A stretch of 64,000 nt of DNA. Origin: an uncultured Fidelibacterota bacterium (GTDB taxonomy: Bacteria > Fidelibacterota > Marinisomatia > Marinisomatales > UBA1611). Below the pieces are notes generated by a model. It did no database searches, was not told the origin of the DNA, and saw only the letters and a list, made by a program, of their open reading frames with translations. The translations under genes and the position numbers were made by a program. The first letter of the stretch is position 1, and the number at the start of each line of letters is the position of its first letter. Location: the NCBI GenBank assembly GCA_913040915.1, contig CAJWHW010000002.1:43227-107226 (forward strand), written 5' to 3'. Shown in pieces: positions 30,660 to 40,193 of the stretch.

Positions 30660-31295
30660 ATGTCAAAAAAAATAATCTTACACTTCTTAGTAATTATTTC
30701 AGGGTTCACAACTATTTATGGAGAATGGGGAGTTTCATGTGATATATATAGTCGATATGTGTGGAGAGGTACTGATTTTGGAAATAGCCCATCGATTCAG
30801 CCCGGTATTTCATATACTACAGGTCCCTTAACTTTGGGTGCGTGGAGTGCATGGCAATATAGCGGAAGTGGAAATGAGAATGACTTATATGTGACTTACA
30901 CAATCGGCGATTATTCATTAACCTTTACAGATTATTATTTCCCAGGACCCTCTTCTAGTGGTGATTTCACCGTATTTGCACCAGATACAGGAGCTCACAA
31001 TATAGAAATATCTCTTGGCGGTTCCTTTAGTGGGGTAGGGTTAACAGCAGCAATGTTTATTATTGAGCCAGGTTTTTATGGTGCATTCGAAGATGAAAAA
31101 GCTCCAATGTCAAAATACATTAATCTTTCTTATGGCTCTTTCATGATTGGTTTAGGAAATGGAGGCTATACATCTGATGGTGGGTTTACGGCGATTGAAT
31201 TAGGGGTATCCGCGAGCAATGATAAATTTAAATGCTCATGGATTTTAAATCCTGATTCTGGTTTGGCCTTTCTTATTATCGGTATGAGTCTATAA
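30660..31295 (+). CDS. Putative outer-membrane beta-barrel (TorF / gcw_chp-like porin) associated with amtB-glnK
   Basis: Signal peptide; motif SRYVWRG....PSIQP...GAW...ENDLY...DYYFP recalled from this family; directly upstream of amtB. Confidence 0.7.
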   Translation: MSKKIILHFLVIISGFTTIYGEWGVSCDIYSRYVWRGTDFGNSPSIQPGISYTTGPLTLGAWSAWQYSGSGNENDLYVTYTIGDYSLTFTDYYFPGPSSSGDFTVFAPDTGAHNIEISLGGSFSGVGLTAAMFIIEPGFYGAFEDEKAPMSKYINLSYGSFMIGLGNGGYTSDGGFTAIELGVSASNDKFKCSWILNPDSGLAFLIIGMSL

Positions 31296-31316: not shown

Positions 31317-32621
31317 ATGAAAAAAATTAGAATTTTATTTATTTGTTTATTTTGCACGAATTTTTCATTATTACTTGCTAATAGTGATCCAACAACTTCA
31401 GATGCCATATTTACTGTTAATAATACCTGGATGCTCGTTGCAACAATTTTAGTATTTATAATGCATTTAGGATTTGCAAGTTTAGAGGCAGGACTTACTC
31501 GATCAAAAAATACAGTAAACATTCTTTTTAAAAATGTTTCTATCATTGCCATTGGTATTTTGAGTTATGCTATTTGTGGATTTAACTTAATGTATCCAGG
31601 TGATTTCAATAGCTACTTTGGATTTGCCGGTTTTGGTATAAATAATCCAGTAGGTTCGGCAGGGTTGATTGATTATGCTGGTGGAGCTTATACTTATTTC
31701 ACAGATTTTATATTTCAAGCTATGTTCGCTGCAACAGCTGCAACTATTGTTTCTGGAGCTGTGGCAGAAAGAATAAAGCTATCATCATTCCTGATATTCT
31801 CAGCTGTATATGTAGCAATAATATATCCCATAGCAGGTTCTTGGAAGTGGGGTGGAGGCTGGTTAGATCAACTTGGTTTTTATGATTTTGCAGGATCTAC
31901 TTTGGTACATGGTGTTGGAGGTTGGGCTGCACTTGTAGGCGCAATTATACTAGGACCTAGAATTGGTAAATATGGGAAAAATGGAAAAATGAAACCAATT
32001 TTAGGCCATAATATGCCACTTGCAACTATTGGTGTTTTTCTTTTATGGTTTGGTTGGTATGGATTTAATGGAGGGTCAGTACTTTCTGCAGATCCTGGTG
32101 CTGTATCTTTAGTGTTTGTTACTACCACTTTAGCAGCAGCAGCGGGTGTGATTGGAGCAATGGCTACGTCTTGGTTTATAAGTCAAAAACCAGATTTATC
32201 AATGATATTAAATGGTTCATTATCTGGGTTGGTTGGTATCACAGCTGGTGCAGACGTTATCAGTCCAATGAACTCTGTATTAGTTGGTTTTATTTCGGGT
32301 ATCATTGTGGTTTTATTTGTAATACAATTAGATAAATTAAAAATTGATGATCCTGTTGGCGCTATATCTGTCCACCTTGTTTGCGGTATCTGGGGAACTC
32401 TTGCTGTCGGTATTTTTAGTCCCCTACACAGTTTATATGTTCAAGCGTTGGGTATTTTAGCATATGGATTTATCAGTCTTATTGGTTCAATTCTGATCTT
32501 TTTAGCATTGAAACATACCATTGGCCTAAGAGTCTCAGAAGATGAAGAAATTATAGGACTTGATATTGGAGAACATGATATGGAGTCATATGCTGGCTTT
32601 GAAATTTTCACTGTAGAATAG
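31317..32621 (+). CDS. amtB: Ammonium transporter
   Basis: FQAMFA, DFAGSTLVH, LWFGWYGFNGGS, DDPVGAISVH; both pore His residues present. Confidence 0.96.
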   Translation: MKKIRILFICLFCTNFSLLLANSDPTTSDAIFTVNNTWMLVATILVFIMHLGFASLEAGLTRSKNTVNILFKNVSIIAIGILSYAICGFNLMYPGDFNSYFGFAGFGINNPVGSAGLIDYAGGAYTYFTDFIFQAMFAATAATIVSGAVAERIKLSSFLIFSAVYVAIIYPIAGSWKWGGGWLDQLGFYDFAGSTLVHGVGGWAALVGAIILGPRIGKYGKNGKMKPILGHNMPLATIGVFLLWFGWYGFNGGSVLSADPGAVSLVFVTTTLAAAAGVIGAMATSWFISQKPDLSMILNGSLSGLVGITAGADVISPMNSVLVGFISGIIVVLFVIQLDKLKIDDPVGAISVHLVCGIWGTLAVGIFSPLHSLYVQALGILAYGFISLIGSILIFLALKHTIGLRVSEDEEIIGLDIGEHDMESYAGFEIFTVE

Positions 32622-32633
32622 GAGAATTTATTA

Positions 32634-32978
32634 ATGAAACTAATTATTGCAATTATTCAGCCGGAAGAATTACCGGCAATTAAAGAAGAACTTCTCAAAA
32701 GGAAAATTTACAAGTTTACCATTTCCAATGTTAGAGGTCAGGGAAAAGAAATTCCGGTAAAGGAGGTCTATCGAGGCATATCTCATGAAATTAGTCTATT
32801 AAAAAAAGTTAGGCTTGAGATTGCAGTCAATGATGATTTTGTAGAAGCTGCTATAGAAGCTATTACTACAGTAGCCAAAAAGGATAAGGATAAAGGCCGA
32901 GGTAAGATATTTATTCTTGCTATTGAAGAGTGTATCCGTATACGAACTGGTGAAAAAGGTAAGGAAGCAATTGGGTGA
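32634..32978 (+). CDS. glnK: P-II nitrogen regulatory protein
   Basis: AIIQP, YRG, GKIF, IRIRTGE.G.EAI; follows amtB. Confidence 0.9.
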   Translation: MKLIIAIIQPEELPAIKEELLKRKIYKFTISNVRGQGKEIPVKEVYRGISHEISLLKKVRLEIAVNDDFVEAAIEAITTVAKKDKDKGRGKIFILAIEECIRIRTGEKGKEAIG

Positions 32979-33262
32979 AAATTAATTATGGATAATCTAT
33001 ATTATTTTTCGTAAACCAGAGTTGGCAAGTAAATCTCATCAAAAATTTATTTCTTCACCCAGAGATTTGTCAATTTACTAATCAGATTTGATCGCGGTTC
33101 CCAAACTTTAATAATATTTAATATAAATTGTGATTTAATTCTTGTAAATAAACACTGGTAACTATATTAAATTACTAAATATATATTATTATATTGAACA
33201 AATACTTAATATTACTATATAATTAACAATATTATTTTAATAATTTAAATAAAGAATAGAAA

Positions 33263-34282
33263 ATTAATATTCCTATAAATATAGCACTTTTTGGATTTGG
33301 TCGTATTGGAAGAAATCTATTCCGATTAGCAAGTAAAGATCCCCGTTTTAACATAGTTGCTATTAGCGAACACAGTCATGTGGAAGCATTGCACTACCTG
33401 TTGGTTCGTGATTCCGTGCATGGCGCACTAGATGATAATGATATCCAGTTAGATGGAGACTCCTTCATTGTTCATGGGAAAAAAATACGTATTCTGCCAG
33501 GGAAAAAACCAGGAGAAGTTCCTTGGATTACGTTGGGCGTGGATGTCGTTGTTGATGCTACAGGTAAATATTTAAAACGTGATGAATTAAATAAACACAT
33601 TAAAGCCGGAGCAAAACGTGTTATTGTTTCCCGTATGCCCGAAGATGAAATTGATCGAATTATTATTCATGGTGTAAATGAGGATACCATATCAAAATCA
33701 GATAAAATTATTTCTGCTACATCCTCTACAACCCAGGTATTAGCTCTTATGTTGAAAATTCTCAATCAGCACTATTCTGTAAAGCGAGCAATGATGACTA
33801 CCGTACATGCGTTTACATCGGATCAGCCTTTGGTGGACGCAATAGGACTGGATTTACGTAGATGCCGATCAGCAGTTAAAAATATTATTCCCAATACTAC
33901 TTCTGCTCCGGAGATAGTTGAGAAATTGATGCCAGAATTCACTGGGAAAATTGATGGAATAGCATTCAATGTTCCAGTTCCAAATGGATCTTGTGTTGAC
34001 TTGACTACAGAACTGGAATTGATGCCTACTGTAGATGAAATAAACCAGACATTGAAAGAAGAATCAGAAAATACATATAAAGGTATTATGGGCTACACAG
34101 ATGATCCTATTGTTTCCTGCGATGTAATTGGCCGTGATGAGACTATGGTTTTTGATGCTCAGGCTACCATGATTAACTCAAAATCCTTATTGAAAACAAT
34201 TTGCTGGTATGATAATGGTTGGGGATTCTCAAAAAGAATTTTGGATACGATCGAACTTTATGCCAAGGAAAATATTCGCTAA
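33263..34282 (+). CDS. GAPDH-family paralogue lacking the catalytic Cys, with a non-canonical or lost start
   Basis: The frame is open back to the TAG at 33257 and reads INIPINIALFGFGRIGRN upstream of the called GTG. The active-site segment is SATSSTTQV instead of SNASCTTNC. Confidence 0.8.
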   Translation: MNIPINIALFGFGRIGRNLFRLASKDPRFNIVAISEHSHVEALHYLLVRDSVHGALDDNDIQLDGDSFIVHGKKIRILPGKKPGEVPWITLGVDVVVDATGKYLKRDELNKHIKAGAKRVIVSRMPEDEIDRIIIHGVNEDTISKSDKIISATSSTTQVLALMLKILNQHYSVKRAMMTTVHAFTSDQPLVDAIGLDLRRCRSAVKNIIPNTTSAPEIVEKLMPEFTGKIDGIAFNVPVPNGSCVDLTTELELMPTVDEINQTLKEESENTYKGIMGYTDDPIVSCDVIGRDETMVFDAQATMINSKSLLKTICWYDNGWGFSKRILDTIELYAKENIR

Positions 34283-35283
34283 TGAAAATTGCAATAAATG
34301 GATTTGGAAGAATTGGAAGGTCTGTATTCAGAGTTCTTAATAATAATAAAGAAATTGAAATCGTAGCCATCAACGATATTTTCGATAAAGGTTCCCTCGT
34401 ATATTTACTGAAATATGATACCGTCATGGGTCGGTTCCCTGGAGATGTCTCCTTAAATGGGGATCTGTTGATTACAGCTAATCAAAGGGTAAAATTATTG
34501 GCAGAACGAATTCCTAGGCAATTACCCTGGCATGAATTAGGAGTAGATATTGTTATAGAATCTACAGGAATATTCCGGCAAAGATCCCAATTGGAGGATC
34601 ACATTTCTGCTGGAGCAAAAAGGGTAATTTTAACTGTTCCTGCGAAAGATGAAATTGATTATACTGTTGTATTGGGTGTAAATGATAATGGTTTAACAAA
34701 AAATCATCGTATCGTATCCAATGCCAGTTGCACTACAAATTGTTTAGCACCTATGGCGAAAGTACTCCATGAAGCATTTGGAATTGAGTTAGGTATAATC
34801 AATACGATTCATGCATATACCAATGACCAGCGTTTGGCTGATGTTCCTCATTCAGACTGGAGAAGGAGTCGTGCTGCGGCTGAAAATGTAATTCCTACAA
34901 CAACGGGTGCTGCACGTGCTGTGGGTAAAGTATTACCGGAGCTTAATGGTAAACTAGATGGAATAGCTATGCGAGTACCGGTTCCAGATGGCTCGGTCGT
35001 AGATTTCAATGTACGTTTACAACATGAAGTCACAGTTGAAACAATTAATGATGCTGTACGATCGGCTGCAGATGATGGTCCCATTTCAAAAGTATTACAA
35101 TATTCTAATTTACCAGTTGTATCAACAGACATTATTGGGAATAAGTATTCTTCCATTTTTGATGCACCATTTACAAGGGTAATTAAGGGAAATTTTGTAA
35201 AAACACTGAATTGGTATGATAATGAATGGGGATATGCCAGCAGAGTAGTGGATCTTATAGGATTGCTAGGAAAATTGATCTAA
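34282..35283 (+). CDS. gap: Type I glyceraldehyde-3-phosphate dehydrogenase
   Basis: MKIAINGFGRIGR, SNASCTTNC, IHAYT, WYDNEWGY. The ATG overlaps the previous stop (TAATG). Confidence 0.96.
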   Translation: MKIAINGFGRIGRSVFRVLNNNKEIEIVAINDIFDKGSLVYLLKYDTVMGRFPGDVSLNGDLLITANQRVKLLAERIPRQLPWHELGVDIVIESTGIFRQRSQLEDHISAGAKRVILTVPAKDEIDYTVVLGVNDNGLTKNHRIVSNASCTTNCLAPMAKVLHEAFGIELGIINTIHAYTNDQRLADVPHSDWRRSRAAAENVIPTTTGAARAVGKVLPELNGKLDGIAMRVPVPDGSVVDFNVRLQHEVTVETINDAVRSAADDGPISKVLQYSNLPVVSTDIIGNKYSSIFDAPFTRVIKGNFVKTLNWYDNEWGYASRVVDLIGLLGKLI

Positions 35284-35525: not shown

Positions 35526-38294
35526 ATGTTAGTAAAGGATAAATTATTTACTTTTGCACAGCAATGCGGTATATCGGATCAAATGCAATCTAGATCAGTA
35601 TTGATATTTGAATTACTGGAAACAGTTTTTTATAGGTTAGATAACTCTAAAGAACTTGAATTTAAGACTATATTAAATTCTCTTCTATCTATAGGAGATC
35701 ATACTTCTTTGAATAATTCCATATTATCAACTCTGGAAACATGGTCAAATGAAGATCTATATCAAGTATTGAAATTTATGGGAACCTACTTTCACTTACT
35801 TAACCAAGCAGAGCTAAGTGAAATTATATCAATAAATAGAAATCGATCAAATAATGCTACATTCGATATTCCCAAAGCTGATTCTATTTTTGCTAGCATT
35901 AAAATGTTAAAACAGAAAAACATAAATTTTGATGAAGCAATGTCAATTCTTAAAAGTATTAAGATACACCCTACATTTACAGCCCATCCTACGGAATCTA
36001 GAAGGCAATCCTCCATAGATAAACAAAAATATATTATTAAAAAGATTAATCAAATTTTATTTGATCCAATTGGCGAAAAAGAAAAAGAAAACCTTATGAA
36101 TGAGGTAAAGCGACTATGTACATTGCTTATGATGACAGATGATATCCGTTCGCACAGAATATCCATAAGAGATGAAATAAATAATACAATAAATAATACC
36201 TTAGATGCGCTTTGGAATGCGGTACCCAGACTTTCACATGATATTGCATCAGCATTTGAAATCTATTATAACAAAAAAATCACTATTCCTAATTTCATTA
36301 GATTCCATAATTGGGTAGGGGGGGATAGAGACGGCAATCCTGAAGTAACTCATGATATTACTGAATATGCAATCCAAACTCAAAAAATACATATAGCGGG
36401 GAAATATATCGATGCGTTGAATATGCTATACGATGACCTAAGCATAACAGTAAAAGACCAAACAAAGCTTATAAAGTTACAGAATTCTATTGAAGCTGAT
36501 ATAATCAATTTGGATATAGATGAAAAAATTCAAAAACAGCTCAAACTAGAACCATTCCGACTAAAGATATTGTGTCTGAAACAAAAATTAGAGCGTCATA
36601 AAGAAAAATTAACCATCCATTACAAAAACCCAGATTATATATCTAAAGAATTCATATCTGAACTGAAGATTATCCAATCATCTCTCAAATTATTATCAAC
36701 TAAAAATAAAATTGATATTGGACCTATCAGCGATTTAATAATTCAAGCAGAAATATTTGGTTTTAACATGATGAGCTTGGATATACGTGAACATTCAGAT
36801 GTACACGAAGAAGTGATCCATGAAATATTAAAAAAAATAAATTGTAAAGTGAATTATAAAGCTTTGGATGAATCCAATAAAAATGAAATTTTGATTGAAA
36901 GTATCAAATTTCAACAGGAGTTGAACCAAACATTTATAAATAACTTATCTGAAAAATCCAAAGAGACTCTCCATACTTTTCTAGTTATCAAAAATGAGTT
37001 ATTGATTGACCCAGATTCAATATCATCATATATCGTAAGTATGACTCATGCAAAAAGTGATATTCTTGAAGTGCTTTTTTTAGCCAAACTTACAGGGGTT
37101 CTGCATTATCAAGATGGTAAAATGAACTGTGGACTCCATATTGTGCCCCTATATGAAACTATTAATGATCTTAAATCAGCACCTAAGCAATTTGCTGAGT
37201 TATTAGATGATAACATTTATAAAAACTATATACAAAGTCAGGGTTTATTTCAAGAAATTATGCTCGGTTATTCAGATAGCAACAAGGATGGAGGTATGGG
37301 TACTGCCCAATATTCTCTGTACAAATGTCAAGAAAGACTGGCTAAAATTTGTAAAGAAAATTGTATTGATTATAGATTATTCCATGGACGTGGCGGATCA
37401 ATAAGTAGAGGTGGAGGAAAATCAAATAAAGCAATAATTAGTTTACCTCCTAATTGTCATAATGGGAAAATACGGATGACAGAACAAGGTGAAGTGATTT
37501 CTTATCGGTATGGATCTTCTCGAATTGCAAAAAGGCATCTAGAACAAATTATCCATGCCCAAATGATTGGATTGGTTGGTATTATAAATGATGAAATAGA
37601 ATTTGAAAATCCGCTCAACTTAGACATTTCAATTAGAGCCTATGATTCCTATAAGAAAAATATAATGAATCAACAGTGTTGGAATTATTTTGTAAATGCA
37701 ACTCCCATTAATCATATTAGTAATTTACCAATTGCTTCAAGACCTGCAGCAAGAAAAACTTTTTCAGATGAATCAACAGGGTTTTATGATTTAAGGGCAA
37801 TCCCCTGGGTATTTTCTTGGACACAGTTAAGATATAATCTTACCGGTTGGTTTGGTTTAGGAACAGCATTATCCCATTTGATTGAAAAATCGTCAAAATT
37901 AAATGAATTAAAAACGTTATATAAAAAATCAAAATTTTTAAAACAACTTATGGATAATATGTCTTTTGAAATGGCTCGTTCCAGATTACACATATCAGAA
38001 TTATATTCGAAGACTAAAAGTGAAAAAGCATTCCATGCTATTTTAATGAGTGAATATAAACTTTGTTTGAATGCCTATAAGGATATAAGCGACTATGAAA
38101 ATTTACTAGATAGAAATCCTGTTATTTCAAATTCTATTGCATTCCGAAATCCGTTTACTGATCTATTAAACATCATTCAAGTTATCCTGTTAAGACGTCA
38201 AATGGAAAATAAAGATCTTACAGATCATGATTTGGACAAATCAATTTTTATGTCAATCAATGCAATTGCAGCAGCAATGCAAACCACAGGTTAA
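35526..38294 (+). CDS. ppc: Phosphoenolpyruvate carboxylase
   Basis: FTAHPTE, GGDRDGNP, MLGYSDSNKDGG, FHGRGGS, TEQGE, LRAIPWVFSWTQ, C-terminal MQTTG. Confidence 0.95.
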   Translation: MLVKDKLFTFAQQCGISDQMQSRSVLIFELLETVFYRLDNSKELEFKTILNSLLSIGDHTSLNNSILSTLETWSNEDLYQVLKFMGTYFHLLNQAELSEIISINRNRSNNATFDIPKADSIFASIKMLKQKNINFDEAMSILKSIKIHPTFTAHPTESRRQSSIDKQKYIIKKINQILFDPIGEKEKENLMNEVKRLCTLLMMTDDIRSHRISIRDEINNTINNTLDALWNAVPRLSHDIASAFEIYYNKKITIPNFIRFHNWVGGDRDGNPEVTHDITEYAIQTQKIHIAGKYIDALNMLYDDLSITVKDQTKLIKLQNSIEADIINLDIDEKIQKQLKLEPFRLKILCLKQKLERHKEKLTIHYKNPDYISKEFISELKIIQSSLKLLSTKNKIDIGPISDLIIQAEIFGFNMMSLDIREHSDVHEEVIHEILKKINCKVNYKALDESNKNEILIESIKFQQELNQTFINNLSEKSKETLHTFLVIKNELLIDPDSISSYIVSMTHAKSDILEVLFLAKLTGVLHYQDGKMNCGLHIVPLYETINDLKSAPKQFAELLDDNIYKNYIQSQGLFQEIMLGYSDSNKDGGMGTAQYSLYKCQERLAKICKENCIDYRLFHGRGGSISRGGGKSNKAIISLPPNCHNGKIRMTEQGEVISYRYGSSRIAKRHLEQIIHAQMIGLVGIINDEIEFENPLNLDISIRAYDSYKKNIMNQQCWNYFVNATPINHISNLPIASRPAARKTFSDESTGFYDLRAIPWVFSWTQLRYNLTGWFGLGTALSHLIEKSSKLNELKTLYKKSKFLKQLMDNMSFEMARSRLHISELYSKTKSEKAFHAILMSEYKLCLNAYKDISDYENLLDRNPVISNSIAFRNPFTDLLNIIQVILLRRQMENKDLTDHDLDKSIFMSINAIAAAMQTTG

Positions 38295-38476: not shown

Positions 38477-39487
38477 CTAACTACATGTGGTTTCAATTAA
38501 TGCAGCACATACTTTATAGGGATCCATATTTGCAGAAGGTCTGCGATCTTCAAGATATCCATAACCATCATTAGCAGTACCCATAGGAATACGAATAGAT
38601 GCTCCACGGTCACTTACACCATATCTAAATTCTTTGATAGAGCAAGTTTCATGTAATCCTGTGAGCCGTTCTTCATTATGAGCTCCATAAATAGCTATGT
38701 GTTGATCATGCTTTTTACCTAATGCATCACAGGCGGCTTCAATTACCTTTAAACCTCCTTCTGTTCGCATGGACTTAGTACTGAAATTGGTATGTGCACC
38801 GGCACCATTCCAATCTCCTTTAACCGGCTTGGGGTGTAATGTAGCGCTCACTCCATAATCTTCAGCAATCCGGTACAATAGCCAGCGGGATAGCCACAAC
38901 TGATCTGCAACATCAAGTGGTCCTAAAGGTCCTACTTGATATTCCCACTGCCCCGGCATGACTTCTGCATTGATTCCAGAAATTTCTAACCCAGCATCAA
39001 TACATAACTCTAAGTGATCCTCAACAATATCACGGCCATATACTTCATCTGCGCCAACTCCACAGTAAAAAGGGCCCTGTGGTGCAGGGTAACCACCTTC
39101 AGGCCAACCAAGAGGTACACGTCCCTGGAAAAAGGTATATTCCTGTTCTATACCAAACCAAGGCTCATGCTCAGCATATTTTTCAGTTACAACTCGTAAA
39201 TGAGCTCGCGTATTTGATTCATGAATAGAACCATCTGCATTCATAACTTCACACATGACCAATAGATTCTCTCCTCCACGAATTGGATCCTGTATAAAGT
39301 AGACTGGTTTCAGCATACAGTCACTATCTTCTCCTGCAGCCTGCATGGTGCTTGATCCATCAAAACCCCAGTCTGGCAAATCAGAAAGAGAATTTACTTT
39401 CCCAGAAATTATTTTAGTTTTGGATCTGAGTTTCTGGGTTGGTTCATGCCCATCCATCCATATATATTCAACTTTTACTTTACTCAA
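38477..39487 (-). CDS. glnII: Glutamine synthetase type II
   Basis: 336 aa; EYIWMDG, LRSKT, FDGSST, EQEY, NAEVMPGQWEYQ, DWNGAGAHTN, EDRRPSAN. TTG start with an AAGGAG RBS. Confidence 0.93.
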   Translation of the reverse strand: MSKVKVEYIWMDGHEPTQKLRSKTKIISGKVNSLSDLPDWGFDGSSTMQAAGEDSDCMLKPVYFIQDPIRGGENLLVMCEVMNADGSIHESNTRAHLRVVTEKYAEHEPWFGIEQEYTFFQGRVPLGWPEGGYPAPQGPFYCGVGADEVYGRDIVEDHLELCIDAGLEISGINAEVMPGQWEYQVGPLGPLDVADQLWLSRWLLYRIAEDYGVSATLHPKPVKGDWNGAGAHTNFSTKSMRTEGGLKVIEAACDALGKKHDQHIAIYGAHNEERLTGLHETCSIKEFRYGVSDRGASIRIPMGTANDGYGYLEDRRPSANMDPYKVCAALIETTCS

Positions 39488-39520: not shown

Positions 39521-39976
39521 TTAATTAAAAACGGGAATATTCTGTATCAATTTATATGATGATAGAATTAACTGTGTTTCTGTACGTATGACTCCGGGCC
39601 AACTTTGAATATTACGTAATAGTTCTTCAAGGCTATGGGAATTCCGAGTTACCACTAAAAGACTATGAGATCCATTCCCTGTTGTACTGAAGCACTGAAT
39701 TACTTCTGGTGTTTTTTCGACAGATTGTATGAATTTTTTGTAATGAATTGACGATTCAGATATAACAGTAATAAGGGCGGATACATCCAAATTTAGCTTT
39801 TTAGGATCCAAAACAGCATGGATACCCTGAATAATACCTGAATCCTGCAATTTTTTTATTCGTTCTGTAACAGTGGGAATTGAAATATTTAATTTATCTG
39901 CTATATGACTTGCAGCAATACGACCATCTTCCTGCAGTAATTCTAAAATTTTCCGATCTATATTATCTATTTTCAT
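39521..39976 (-). CDS. Lrp/AsnC family transcriptional regulator
   Basis: DRKILELLQEDGR HTH, ERIKKL..SGII, C-terminal RAM domain (GVIRTET). Start taken at MKIDNID. Confidence 0.92.
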   Translation of the reverse strand: MKIDNIDRKILELLQEDGRIAASHIADKLNISIPTVTERIKKLQDSGIIQGIHAVLDPKKLNLDVSALITVISESSIHYKKFIQSVEKTPEVIQCFSTTGNGSHSLLVVTRNSHSLEELLRNIQSWPGVIRTETQLILSSYKLIQNIPVFN

Positions 39977-40193
39977 TAAGTAATTCAATTTGCCCCTTCT
40001 TAATATTATTAATATTTAGTATAAAACAATAATAAATATTTATTTAATATTTATTTAATATTTATTATTATTAATGTATAAACGCAATTATATTGATAAT
40101 ATTTATTATAAATCTTACCAATAAATGAAAACTAGATTATTTAATTTTTTTAATACAAAAGTGTTTAAATCAAATAAGTATTTAAAATAATAA

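Follow-up and report, generated by a model that had tools for sequence, protein, structure and literature searches.

The window analysed here is a stretch of 64,000 nucleotides from an uncultured Fidelibacterota bacterium (contig CAJWHW010000002.1 of assembly GCA_913040915.1, positions 43,227 to 107,226), and the subject of this report is a pair of consecutive forward-strand genes within it, both of which encode proteins of the glyceraldehyde-3-phosphate dehydrogenase (GAPDH) type. The downstream gene (34282..35283; 333 residues) is a canonical type I gap with its Cys codon, TGC, at 34729-34731, and the upstream gene (33263..34282; 339 codons counted from an ATT, plus the TAA stop) encodes a GAPDH-like protein that lacks this residue and is termed the Cys-less protein below. 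Sequence comparisons support the view that the upstream gene specifies a maintained, catalytically disabled paralogue. We give a probability of roughly 0.5 to the fuller proposal that its product is a maintained subunit, dead for GAPDH chemistry, which still binds ligands and works together with Gap. In support of it stand the loss of catalytic residues, the phylum-wide conservation, the purifying selection, the adjacency and overlap with gap and the membership in an old clade; a heterotetramer with Gap is plausible, as it would fit the conserved stop/start overlap and a predicted heterodimer.

Residues lost and retained in the Cys-less protein

The open frame runs uninterrupted from 33260 to 34279 and its translation is a GAPDH-like protein of 340 residues, in which the motifs GFGRIGR, AISE, ATSSTTQV, TVHAFT, AFNVPVPNGS and WYDNGWG are found. 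A preliminary description of this DNA had reported a full-length, uninterrupted first copy with GFGRIGR, TVHAFT, VPVPNGS and WYDNGWG, in which ATSSTTQV (Ser codon TCT at 33725) stands in place of NASCTTNC and AISE in place of AIND, and the translation bears this out; both SNASCTTNC and AMRVPVPDGS are present in the downstream gap. The two proteins are 40% identical across 332 residues and share both Pfam domains (Gp_dh_N, 6.6e-27, and Gp_dh_C, 4.1e-49, in the Cys-less protein, for which the Pfam scan gave no additional domain or surface motif). At the level of curated families they part, since only gap passes the TIGR01534 cut-off of 367.2 bits (424.4 vs 324.6 for the Cys-less protein). Every NCBIfam match of the Cys-less protein lies under its cut-off, and this includes the two models of erythrose-4-phosphate dehydrogenase (E4PD), TIGR01532 and NF010058, where 268.3 bits stand against 530.55 and 278.1 against 539.

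The fold itself is predicted to be intact. AlphaFold2, supplied with an alignment of 40 rows, gave a predicted local distance difference test score (pLDDT) of 84.9 and a predicted template modelling (TM) score of 0.86, with low model confidence limited to residues 196-207, which are part of the S-loop. Foldseek aligned the model to solved GAPDHs with TM scores of 0.89-0.90, engineered C149S and C149A mutants among them.

Residue numbering is the conventional one (Cys149, His176, Arg231) as used in PMC12041015, a review of the aldehyde dehydrogenase superfamilies; excerpts of it also provide the roles of Cys149, His176, Arg231 and Ser148, describing Cys149 as the residue that forms the thiohemiacetal and the thioester, and Arg231 as part of the Ps and Pi phosphate sites. 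The family was collected from a single genome for each species, where scanning found 92 encoding stretches and 80 loci, at 53-92% identity, were retained, so that the counts below refer to 81 Cys-less sequences (80 loci and the window) and to 78 neighbouring canonical gaps.

At position 149 the window has Ser (TCT, 33725..33727), as do 79 sequences of the family in all, the other two having Thr (locus L002) and Ala (locus L038); Cys is found in none of the 81. The anion-site Arg231 is replaced by Asn (AAT, 33968..33970), which is found in all 81 sequences. Since both the nucleophile and this phosphate-site residue are absent, the Cys-less protein should be incapable of GAPDH thioester chemistry. 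The neighbouring gaps keep Cys149 in 78 of 78, and His176 and Arg231 in 77 of 78 each, where the missing cases are an unread residue and an alignment gap, respectively. Glu314 has given way to Gly (GGT, 34217..34219, within WYDNGWG), likewise in 81/81, and the window carries further changes at Cys153 (to Val), Arg183 (to Pro) and Gly209 (to Ser). Four of the changes (Arg231Asn, Glu314Gly, Asn31Ser and Arg183Pro) are fixed throughout the family, and Gly209, a phosphate-site position, is hypervariable, with 17 states among the 81 sequences.

Much of the pocket has stayed as it is in GAPDH. The dinucleotide-binding loop GFGRIGR (33293..33313) is retained in the window and, as GFG[RK]IGR, in 79 of the 81 sequences, the remaining two being interrupted by contig ends; the equivalent of His176 (CAT, 33806..33808) is His in all of them. 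Ser148, Thr150, Thr151, Thr179, Arg195, Arg197 and Asn313 are equally unchanged in 81/81, and Gln152 is found in 78/81. The invariance of these pocket residues (His176, Ser148, Thr150/151, Thr179, Arg195/197 and Asn313) indicates that the pocket is still under selection. When the two families are compared position by position, 71 positions are fixed alike and 23 are fixed (at least 95%) to differing residues; these type II positions include Gln152, Val153, Pro183, Asn231 and Gly314. A further 25 positions are conserved in gap yet variable in the Cys-less family, with no case of the reverse, and overall conservation is 0.755 in the Cys-less family vs 0.837 in gap. The term pseudoenzyme, which had been applied to this protein in the preliminary description, can therefore be kept in part: the losses of Cys149 and Arg231 under purifying selection speak for it, and the residues of the pocket that are invariant in 81/81 call for caution, since the protein may have a new, thiol-independent activity.

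As a separate observation, the family has exchanged its cysteines. Both Cys149 and Cys153 are gone, and two near-invariant cysteines have been gained, Cys245 (in NGSCVD, 33989-33991) and Cys315 (in TICWYDN, 34202-34204; both in the numbering of the 340-residue translation), which correspond to Val and Asn in the canonical gap.

Distribution, pairing with gap and the start codon

The Cys-less family is widespread in one phylum. A protein search returned 2918 matches among 4974 candidates, and the best 120 of them, at 67-99% identity, comprised 115 with the Cys-less motif and 5 that fall outside the motif pattern, with Cys in none. All taxonomically named loci of the genome scan belong to Marinimicrobia, Neomarinimicrobiota or Fidelibacterota. 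The ratio of non-synonymous to synonymous substitution rates (dN/dS), calculated by NG86 for the 15 pairs among the window and its relatives L001-L005, is 0.045-0.084 for the Cys-less gene vs 0.041-0.076 for the adjoining gap in the same genome pairs, although at dS of 0.5-2.3 these ratios are partly saturated. The sequence data thus support a maintained gene, under purifying selection and retained over the long term, as had been proposed from the window alone.

In 79 of 79 testable loci the Cys-less gene is followed immediately by a canonical gap in the same orientation. This number is made up of 77 loci with a long gap open reading frame and of L019 and L025, where gap begins in the short remaining sequence; L035, whose sequence ends within the first gene, was left out. 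Among 77 scorable junctions, the window included, stop and start overlap in 70, namely as 47 four-base overlaps (mostly ATGA, with a few GTG or TTG starts) and 23 of the TAATG or TGATG form, and the other 7 are gaps of 0-9 bases. In the window the junction is the TAATG at 34280..34284, in which the TAA of the Cys-less gene (34280-34282) shares bases with the ATG of gap, just as first described.

The beginning of the Cys-less gene calls for a correction, since position 33257, where it had been placed initially, opens a TAG stop (33257-33259). Between this stop and GFGRIGR there is no ATG, GTG or TTG, and a canonical start appears only 3′ of the Rossmann motif, at GTG 33380. The codon 10 positions 5′ of GFGRIGR is ATG in 50 of the 81 family sequences and ATT in the window (33263..33265), and ATT occupies this position also in L001-L005, L007 and L018; other lineages have TTG, ATA, CTG or GTG. 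Judging from the position of ATG in relatives and from codon selection, ATT 33263 is the likely, non-canonical start. Over the first 50 codons from ATT, the six closest genomes differ by 11-25 synonymous vs 0-4 non-synonymous codons per pair, which argues that the stretch is translated, and ATT-AAT is constant among them. A canonical start is missing anywhere 5′ of GFGRIGR in 9 of the 79 sequences that include the N-terminus. Gene callers truncate the forms that begin with ATT, and the gene calls of the closest relatives are shortened to 299-317 residues. Beyond the ATT clade the non-canonical starts are CTG or ATA, loci with a non-canonical codon include L010, L014 and L040, and the downstream gap always begins with ATG, GTG or TTG; owing to its non-canonical start, the first protein may be produced in smaller amounts.

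Wider clade, predicted assembly and competing explanations

A profile search of 1.84 billion representatives placed the family in a broader context. From its best 150 matches, 135 sequences of 250-480 residues were aligned (the two proteins of the window included), 21 of which are without Cys149, and a FastTree phylogeny of 140 rows sets 116 sequences apart from a clan (97% local support) that consists of 23 Cys-less members and a single Cys-bearing one. A second search used a profile of the members from outside Marinimicrobia, and its best 120 matches have Asn231 in 118, Gly314 in 114 and His176 in 120, and keep Cys149 in 106. The source names in this clade include Marinimicrobia, Acidobacteriota, Thermoanaerobaculia and Desulfobacterales. 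An IQ-TREE phylogeny of 73 rows unites the canonical Arg231 GAPDHs in a clan of 36 rows (99% SH-aLRT) and groups the Marinimicrobia family with P0127, P0158 and P0168 in a Cys-less clan of 11 rows (99%). The gene of the window thus belongs to the Cys-less branch of an old Asn231/Gly314 clade. A recent tandem duplication is ruled out by the separate, well-supported clans of the Cys-less family and the canonical gaps, so that the expression tandem gap pair, if taken to mean a recent copy, has to be abandoned. The starred branches of the IQ-TREE phylogeny require at least four changes of the Cys-less/Asn231 label, and the wider clade has Ser, Val, Asn, Ala, Gly or Pro at position 149, depending on the branch. 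From these sequences Cys is judged to have been lost repeatedly within the clade, and the variety of residues speaks for a function under selection that needs no nucleophile at this position. Six clade members were compared with NCBIfam and no model reached its cut-off.

The order of the two genes may extend beyond Marinimicrobia, as suggested by P0227 and P0272 from other lineages, which are mis-called open reading frames that start in a Cys-less copy and run on into a canonical GAPDH. P0227 is a fragment of 329 residues in which a Cys-less C-terminus (Ala149) continues in frame, with no stop, into a canonical N-terminus; this could be a genuine fusion or the product of an error in sequencing or gene calling. 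The clade also contains a large group (P0274-P0391) with SCTAHC, Asn231 and Gly314 that keeps the catalytic Cys, and the three examples of it that were compared with TIGR01534 all score below the cut-off. A tblastn search of plasmids with one Cys-bearing Asn231 member, P0275, gave 274 records, all of them ordinary gap at less than 47% identity.

According to the favoured proposal, the Cys-less gene would have been kept since before Marinimicrobia (SAR406, Fidelibacterota) diversified, under selection as strong as on the real enzyme, and a single transcript, in which stop and start codons overlap, would serve for its product and for Gap. The Cys-less protein would then join Gap through the ordinary GAPDH subunit interface, giving mixed tetramers in which the non-catalytic subunit could still bind nicotinamide adenine dinucleotide, NAD(H), possibly also a phosphorylated ligand, and would tune the activity, cooperativity or stability of Gap. 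This way of working would resemble that of the dead-paralogue 'prozymes' of trypanosomatids. What we infer for the Cys-less protein thus comprises inactivity, NAD binding, hetero-oligomer formation and a regulatory effect.

The assembly was approached by structure prediction. The predicted heterodimer of the Cys-less protein and Gap scored 0.73, the best of 3 controls being 0.00, at a mark that 116 of 157 solved complexes attain, as do 2 of 215 mismatched pairs; since GAPDH tetramers have been solved many times, however, this score shows likeness, it may reflect remembered solved GAPDH homotetramers, and the prediction does not separate hetero- from homo-oligomers. Contact agreement between runs was at least 96% and the pLDDT of the partner at least 90. 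The predicted interface lies in the catalytic domain and the S-loop region, which we take to be the large dimer interface of GAPDH tetramers. Conservation is higher in this interface than in the rest of the protein, in the Cys-less family (0.889 vs 0.727) as well as in gap (0.911 vs 0.814), yet the interface overlaps active-site segments and the comparison is therefore confounded; as a test of hetero-assembly it was rejected as uninformative, because a homotetramer would be equally conserved. Two side observations concern the same surface. The gained Cys245 (NGSCVD) is located in the predicted interface, into which also falls the Trp of the S-loop motif DWRRSR (34855-34857), a site occupied by Trp in 39 of 40 Marinimicrobia gaps and by Leu in 37 of their 40 Cys-less partners.

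The limits of the heterodimer score and of the interface conservation weigh against the favoured proposal, and so does the partial saturation of dN/dS. Successive enzymes of a single pathway, too, are commonly encoded by adjacent genes with stop/start overlap. The pocket, with its invariant residues and 23 fixed changes, is by no means relaxed, and this pattern fits a ligand sensor and a re-tooled active site equally well. Finally, a search for a fused Cys-less and canonical protein yielded nothing relevant: its three matches, out of 3511 candidates, were a weak one and two multi-domain products of plants.

The main competitor takes up the state of the pocket. It holds that the Cys-less protein is a new, thiol-independent NAD(P)-dependent enzyme that forms its own homotetramer and performs a step next to that of Gap, one possibility being that His176 serves as the base while a hydroxyl group on a phosphorylated intermediate is oxidised. 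This appears possible, though doubtful. It would account for the pocket residues that are invariant throughout the family and for the type II positions, operon neighbours are often consecutive enzymes, and the Cys-bearing members of the clade (106 of the best 120) could be enzymes with another substrate. On the other hand, position 149 is Thr or Ala in two loci and elsewhere in the clade Val, Asn, Gly or Pro, the phosphate-site Gly209 is hypervariable, no curated family or described chemistry fits, as all NCBIfam matches stay below cut-off, and a literature search found no report of such a protein. Engineered C149S GAPDH is reportedly nearly inactive. It was also considered that the protein might moonlight independently of Gap, by binding nucleic acid or another protein, so that the pairing would mean co-expression only. 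Excerpts of the literature describe catalysis-independent roles of GAPDH proteins, and the intact predicted fold and purifying selection would be compatible with such a role; its conservation, however, is centred on the NAD/substrate pocket and the subunit interface, gap is the sole constant neighbour, with overlapping codons at 70 of 77 junctions, and no extra domain or surface motif is seen, all of which makes this idea improbable. Least credible by far is an artefact or a decaying gene, in which Cys would have mutated to Ser recently, the assembly would be wrong or a pseudogene would have lost its start. The lack of any ATG, GTG or TTG 5′ of the Rossmann motif and the short gene calls in the closest relatives could be read in this way. 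However, the same substitutions recur in 80 independent assemblies and the frame is uninterrupted in the window; recent mutation and assembly error are ruled out by the absence of Cys in 81 of 81 sequences, by dN/dS of 0.045-0.084 and by the N-terminal codon pattern, including the ATT common to the six closest genomes.

If the Cys-less protein is indeed a non-catalytic subunit of Gap, the argument could be carried further, to the rather unlikely conjecture that the whole Asn231/Gly314 clade, in several phyla, consists of proteins that have long served glycolytic GAPDH as obligate partner subunits. In that case many bacteria would run a mixed-tetramer GAPDH with non-catalytic ligand-sensing sites, which would be a hard-wired form of the half-of-the-sites behaviour for which GAPDH is known, and the Cys of the partner would be dispensable and so lost again and again.

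Known systems offer partial parallels. Like type I GAPDH (EC 1.2.1.12; TIGR01534; PDB 1GD1), the Cys-less protein has both Pfam domains, a TM score of about 0.9 and the glycine loop, His176, Thr179, Arg195 and Asn313, but it lacks Cys149, Arg231, Glu314 and Cys153 and stands outside the canonical clan (99% SH-aLRT). The same change at the nucleophile site is found in C149S and C149A GAPDH of Geobacillus stearothermophilus (PDB 1NQ5/1NQO and 1NPT/1NQA), structures that are among its best PDB matches by sequence and by fold and that crystallise with NAD, according to the titles of the entries; these are laboratory constructs that are otherwise canonical, whereas the natural protein has about 23 further fixed changes, Arg231Asn included. 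In chloroplasts, the GAPDH paralogues GapA and GapB form one A2B2 tetramer in which one paralogue is regulatory, and PDB 2PKQ and 7Q53, which we take to be GapA/GapB entries, are among the PDB matches. The analogy with the Cys-less/Gap pair is a loose one, because GapB keeps its catalytic Cys and regulates via a C-terminal extension, and the Cys-less protein has neither. Epd (GapB erythrose-4-phosphate dehydrogenase; TIGR01532; PDB 2XF8), another of the fold matches, is likewise a GAPDH paralogue of diverged function, but it uses a catalytic Cys, and the 268-278 bits of the Cys-less protein fall far from the E4PD cut-offs of 530-539. The trypanosomatid prozyme, in the excerpted account of PMC6221367, is a dead AdoMetDC paralogue that activates the enzyme by heterodimerising. 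There, too, a dead paralogue is retained for pairing with a live enzyme, as is proposed here; the prozyme differs in its unrelated fold, its eukaryotic origin and its non-adjacent genes, and pairing and activation, demonstrated in trypanosomatids, would only be expected for the Cys-less protein.

Gene surroundings and significance

In the window the pair is flanked, as noted at the outset, by amtB (31317-32621) and glnK (32634-32978) upstream and by ppc (35526-38294) downstream, and this position had been taken as a hint of a link between carbon and nitrogen status. The hint finds no support in the comparison with relatives, since amtB and glnK are each found upstream of the pair in 5 of 80 loci, lrp with a type II glutamine synthetase near it in 10 of 80 and ppc in none of the 80. 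The nitrogen neighbourhood is a trait of the window's own sub-lineage. Eight other loci were inspected beyond this lineage: acs lies downstream of the pair in L022, L028, L049 and L063, followed by pfk and fba in L022, L049 and L063 (the sequence of L028 stops at acs), pyk lies downstream in L012, and unrelated genes follow in L044, L076 and L077. The flanks thus vary by lineage and gap is the sole constant neighbour, and acs, pfk, fba and pyk place the pair among central-carbon genes in several lineages.

The AT-rich spacer 5′ of the pair contains a promoter-like TTGAAC-18-TATAAT (33194..33223, forward strand), a weak candidate; the scan for promoters and terminators gave nothing that exceeds chance, with 19 promoter-like sites vs 14.3 ± 3.4 in shuffled sequences. 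Just 5′ of amtB, a forward open reading frame of 211 residues (30660-31295) has a signal-like N-terminus and no Pfam match, and it is kept at 54-55% identity in loci L003 and L005; its product may be a small outer-membrane channel tied to ammonium uptake. Beyond ppc, the reverse strand encodes a short glutamine synthetase of 336 residues (38477-39487), taken for the eukaryote-like type II, and next to it an Lrp/AsnC regulator (39521-39988). A dense run of amino-acid biosynthesis genes extends from 72 to 25843, with trp genes, thrA-asd-thrB-thrC, asnB, ilvBHC, leuB and two HMGL-type synthases flanking leuCD, and it is followed by gltB, named from its translation. The upstream half of the window is thus occupied by amino-acid biosynthesis, which puts the gap pair at the edge of an anabolic region.

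Few enzymes have been studied as much as GAPDH. No natural conserved Cys-less bacterial GAPDH paralogue and no heteromeric bacterial GAPDH was found in full-text literature searches, subscription-only papers excluded. PMC12041015 covers GAPDH subfamilies, and in its excerpts the terms 'pseudoenzyme' and 'catalytically inactive' concern Aldh16. A dead paralogue that acts as partner is a known kind of protein, and the Cys-less protein is probably a non-catalytic partner subunit of a sort not so far reported for GAPDH. Public records label these proteins 'type I glyceraldehyde-3-phosphate dehydrogenase', which inflates gap copy numbers in metabolic reconstructions. Should the Cys-less protein prove to be a new enzyme, a thiol-independent reaction would be added to the GAPDH fold. 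If instead it is a partner subunit of Gap, it would show that in bacteria, too, an enzyme can be regulated through a dead paralogue, and the glycolysis of SAR406/Marinimicrobia, a major lineage of the ocean, and perhaps that of other phyla, would run on a heteromeric GAPDH.

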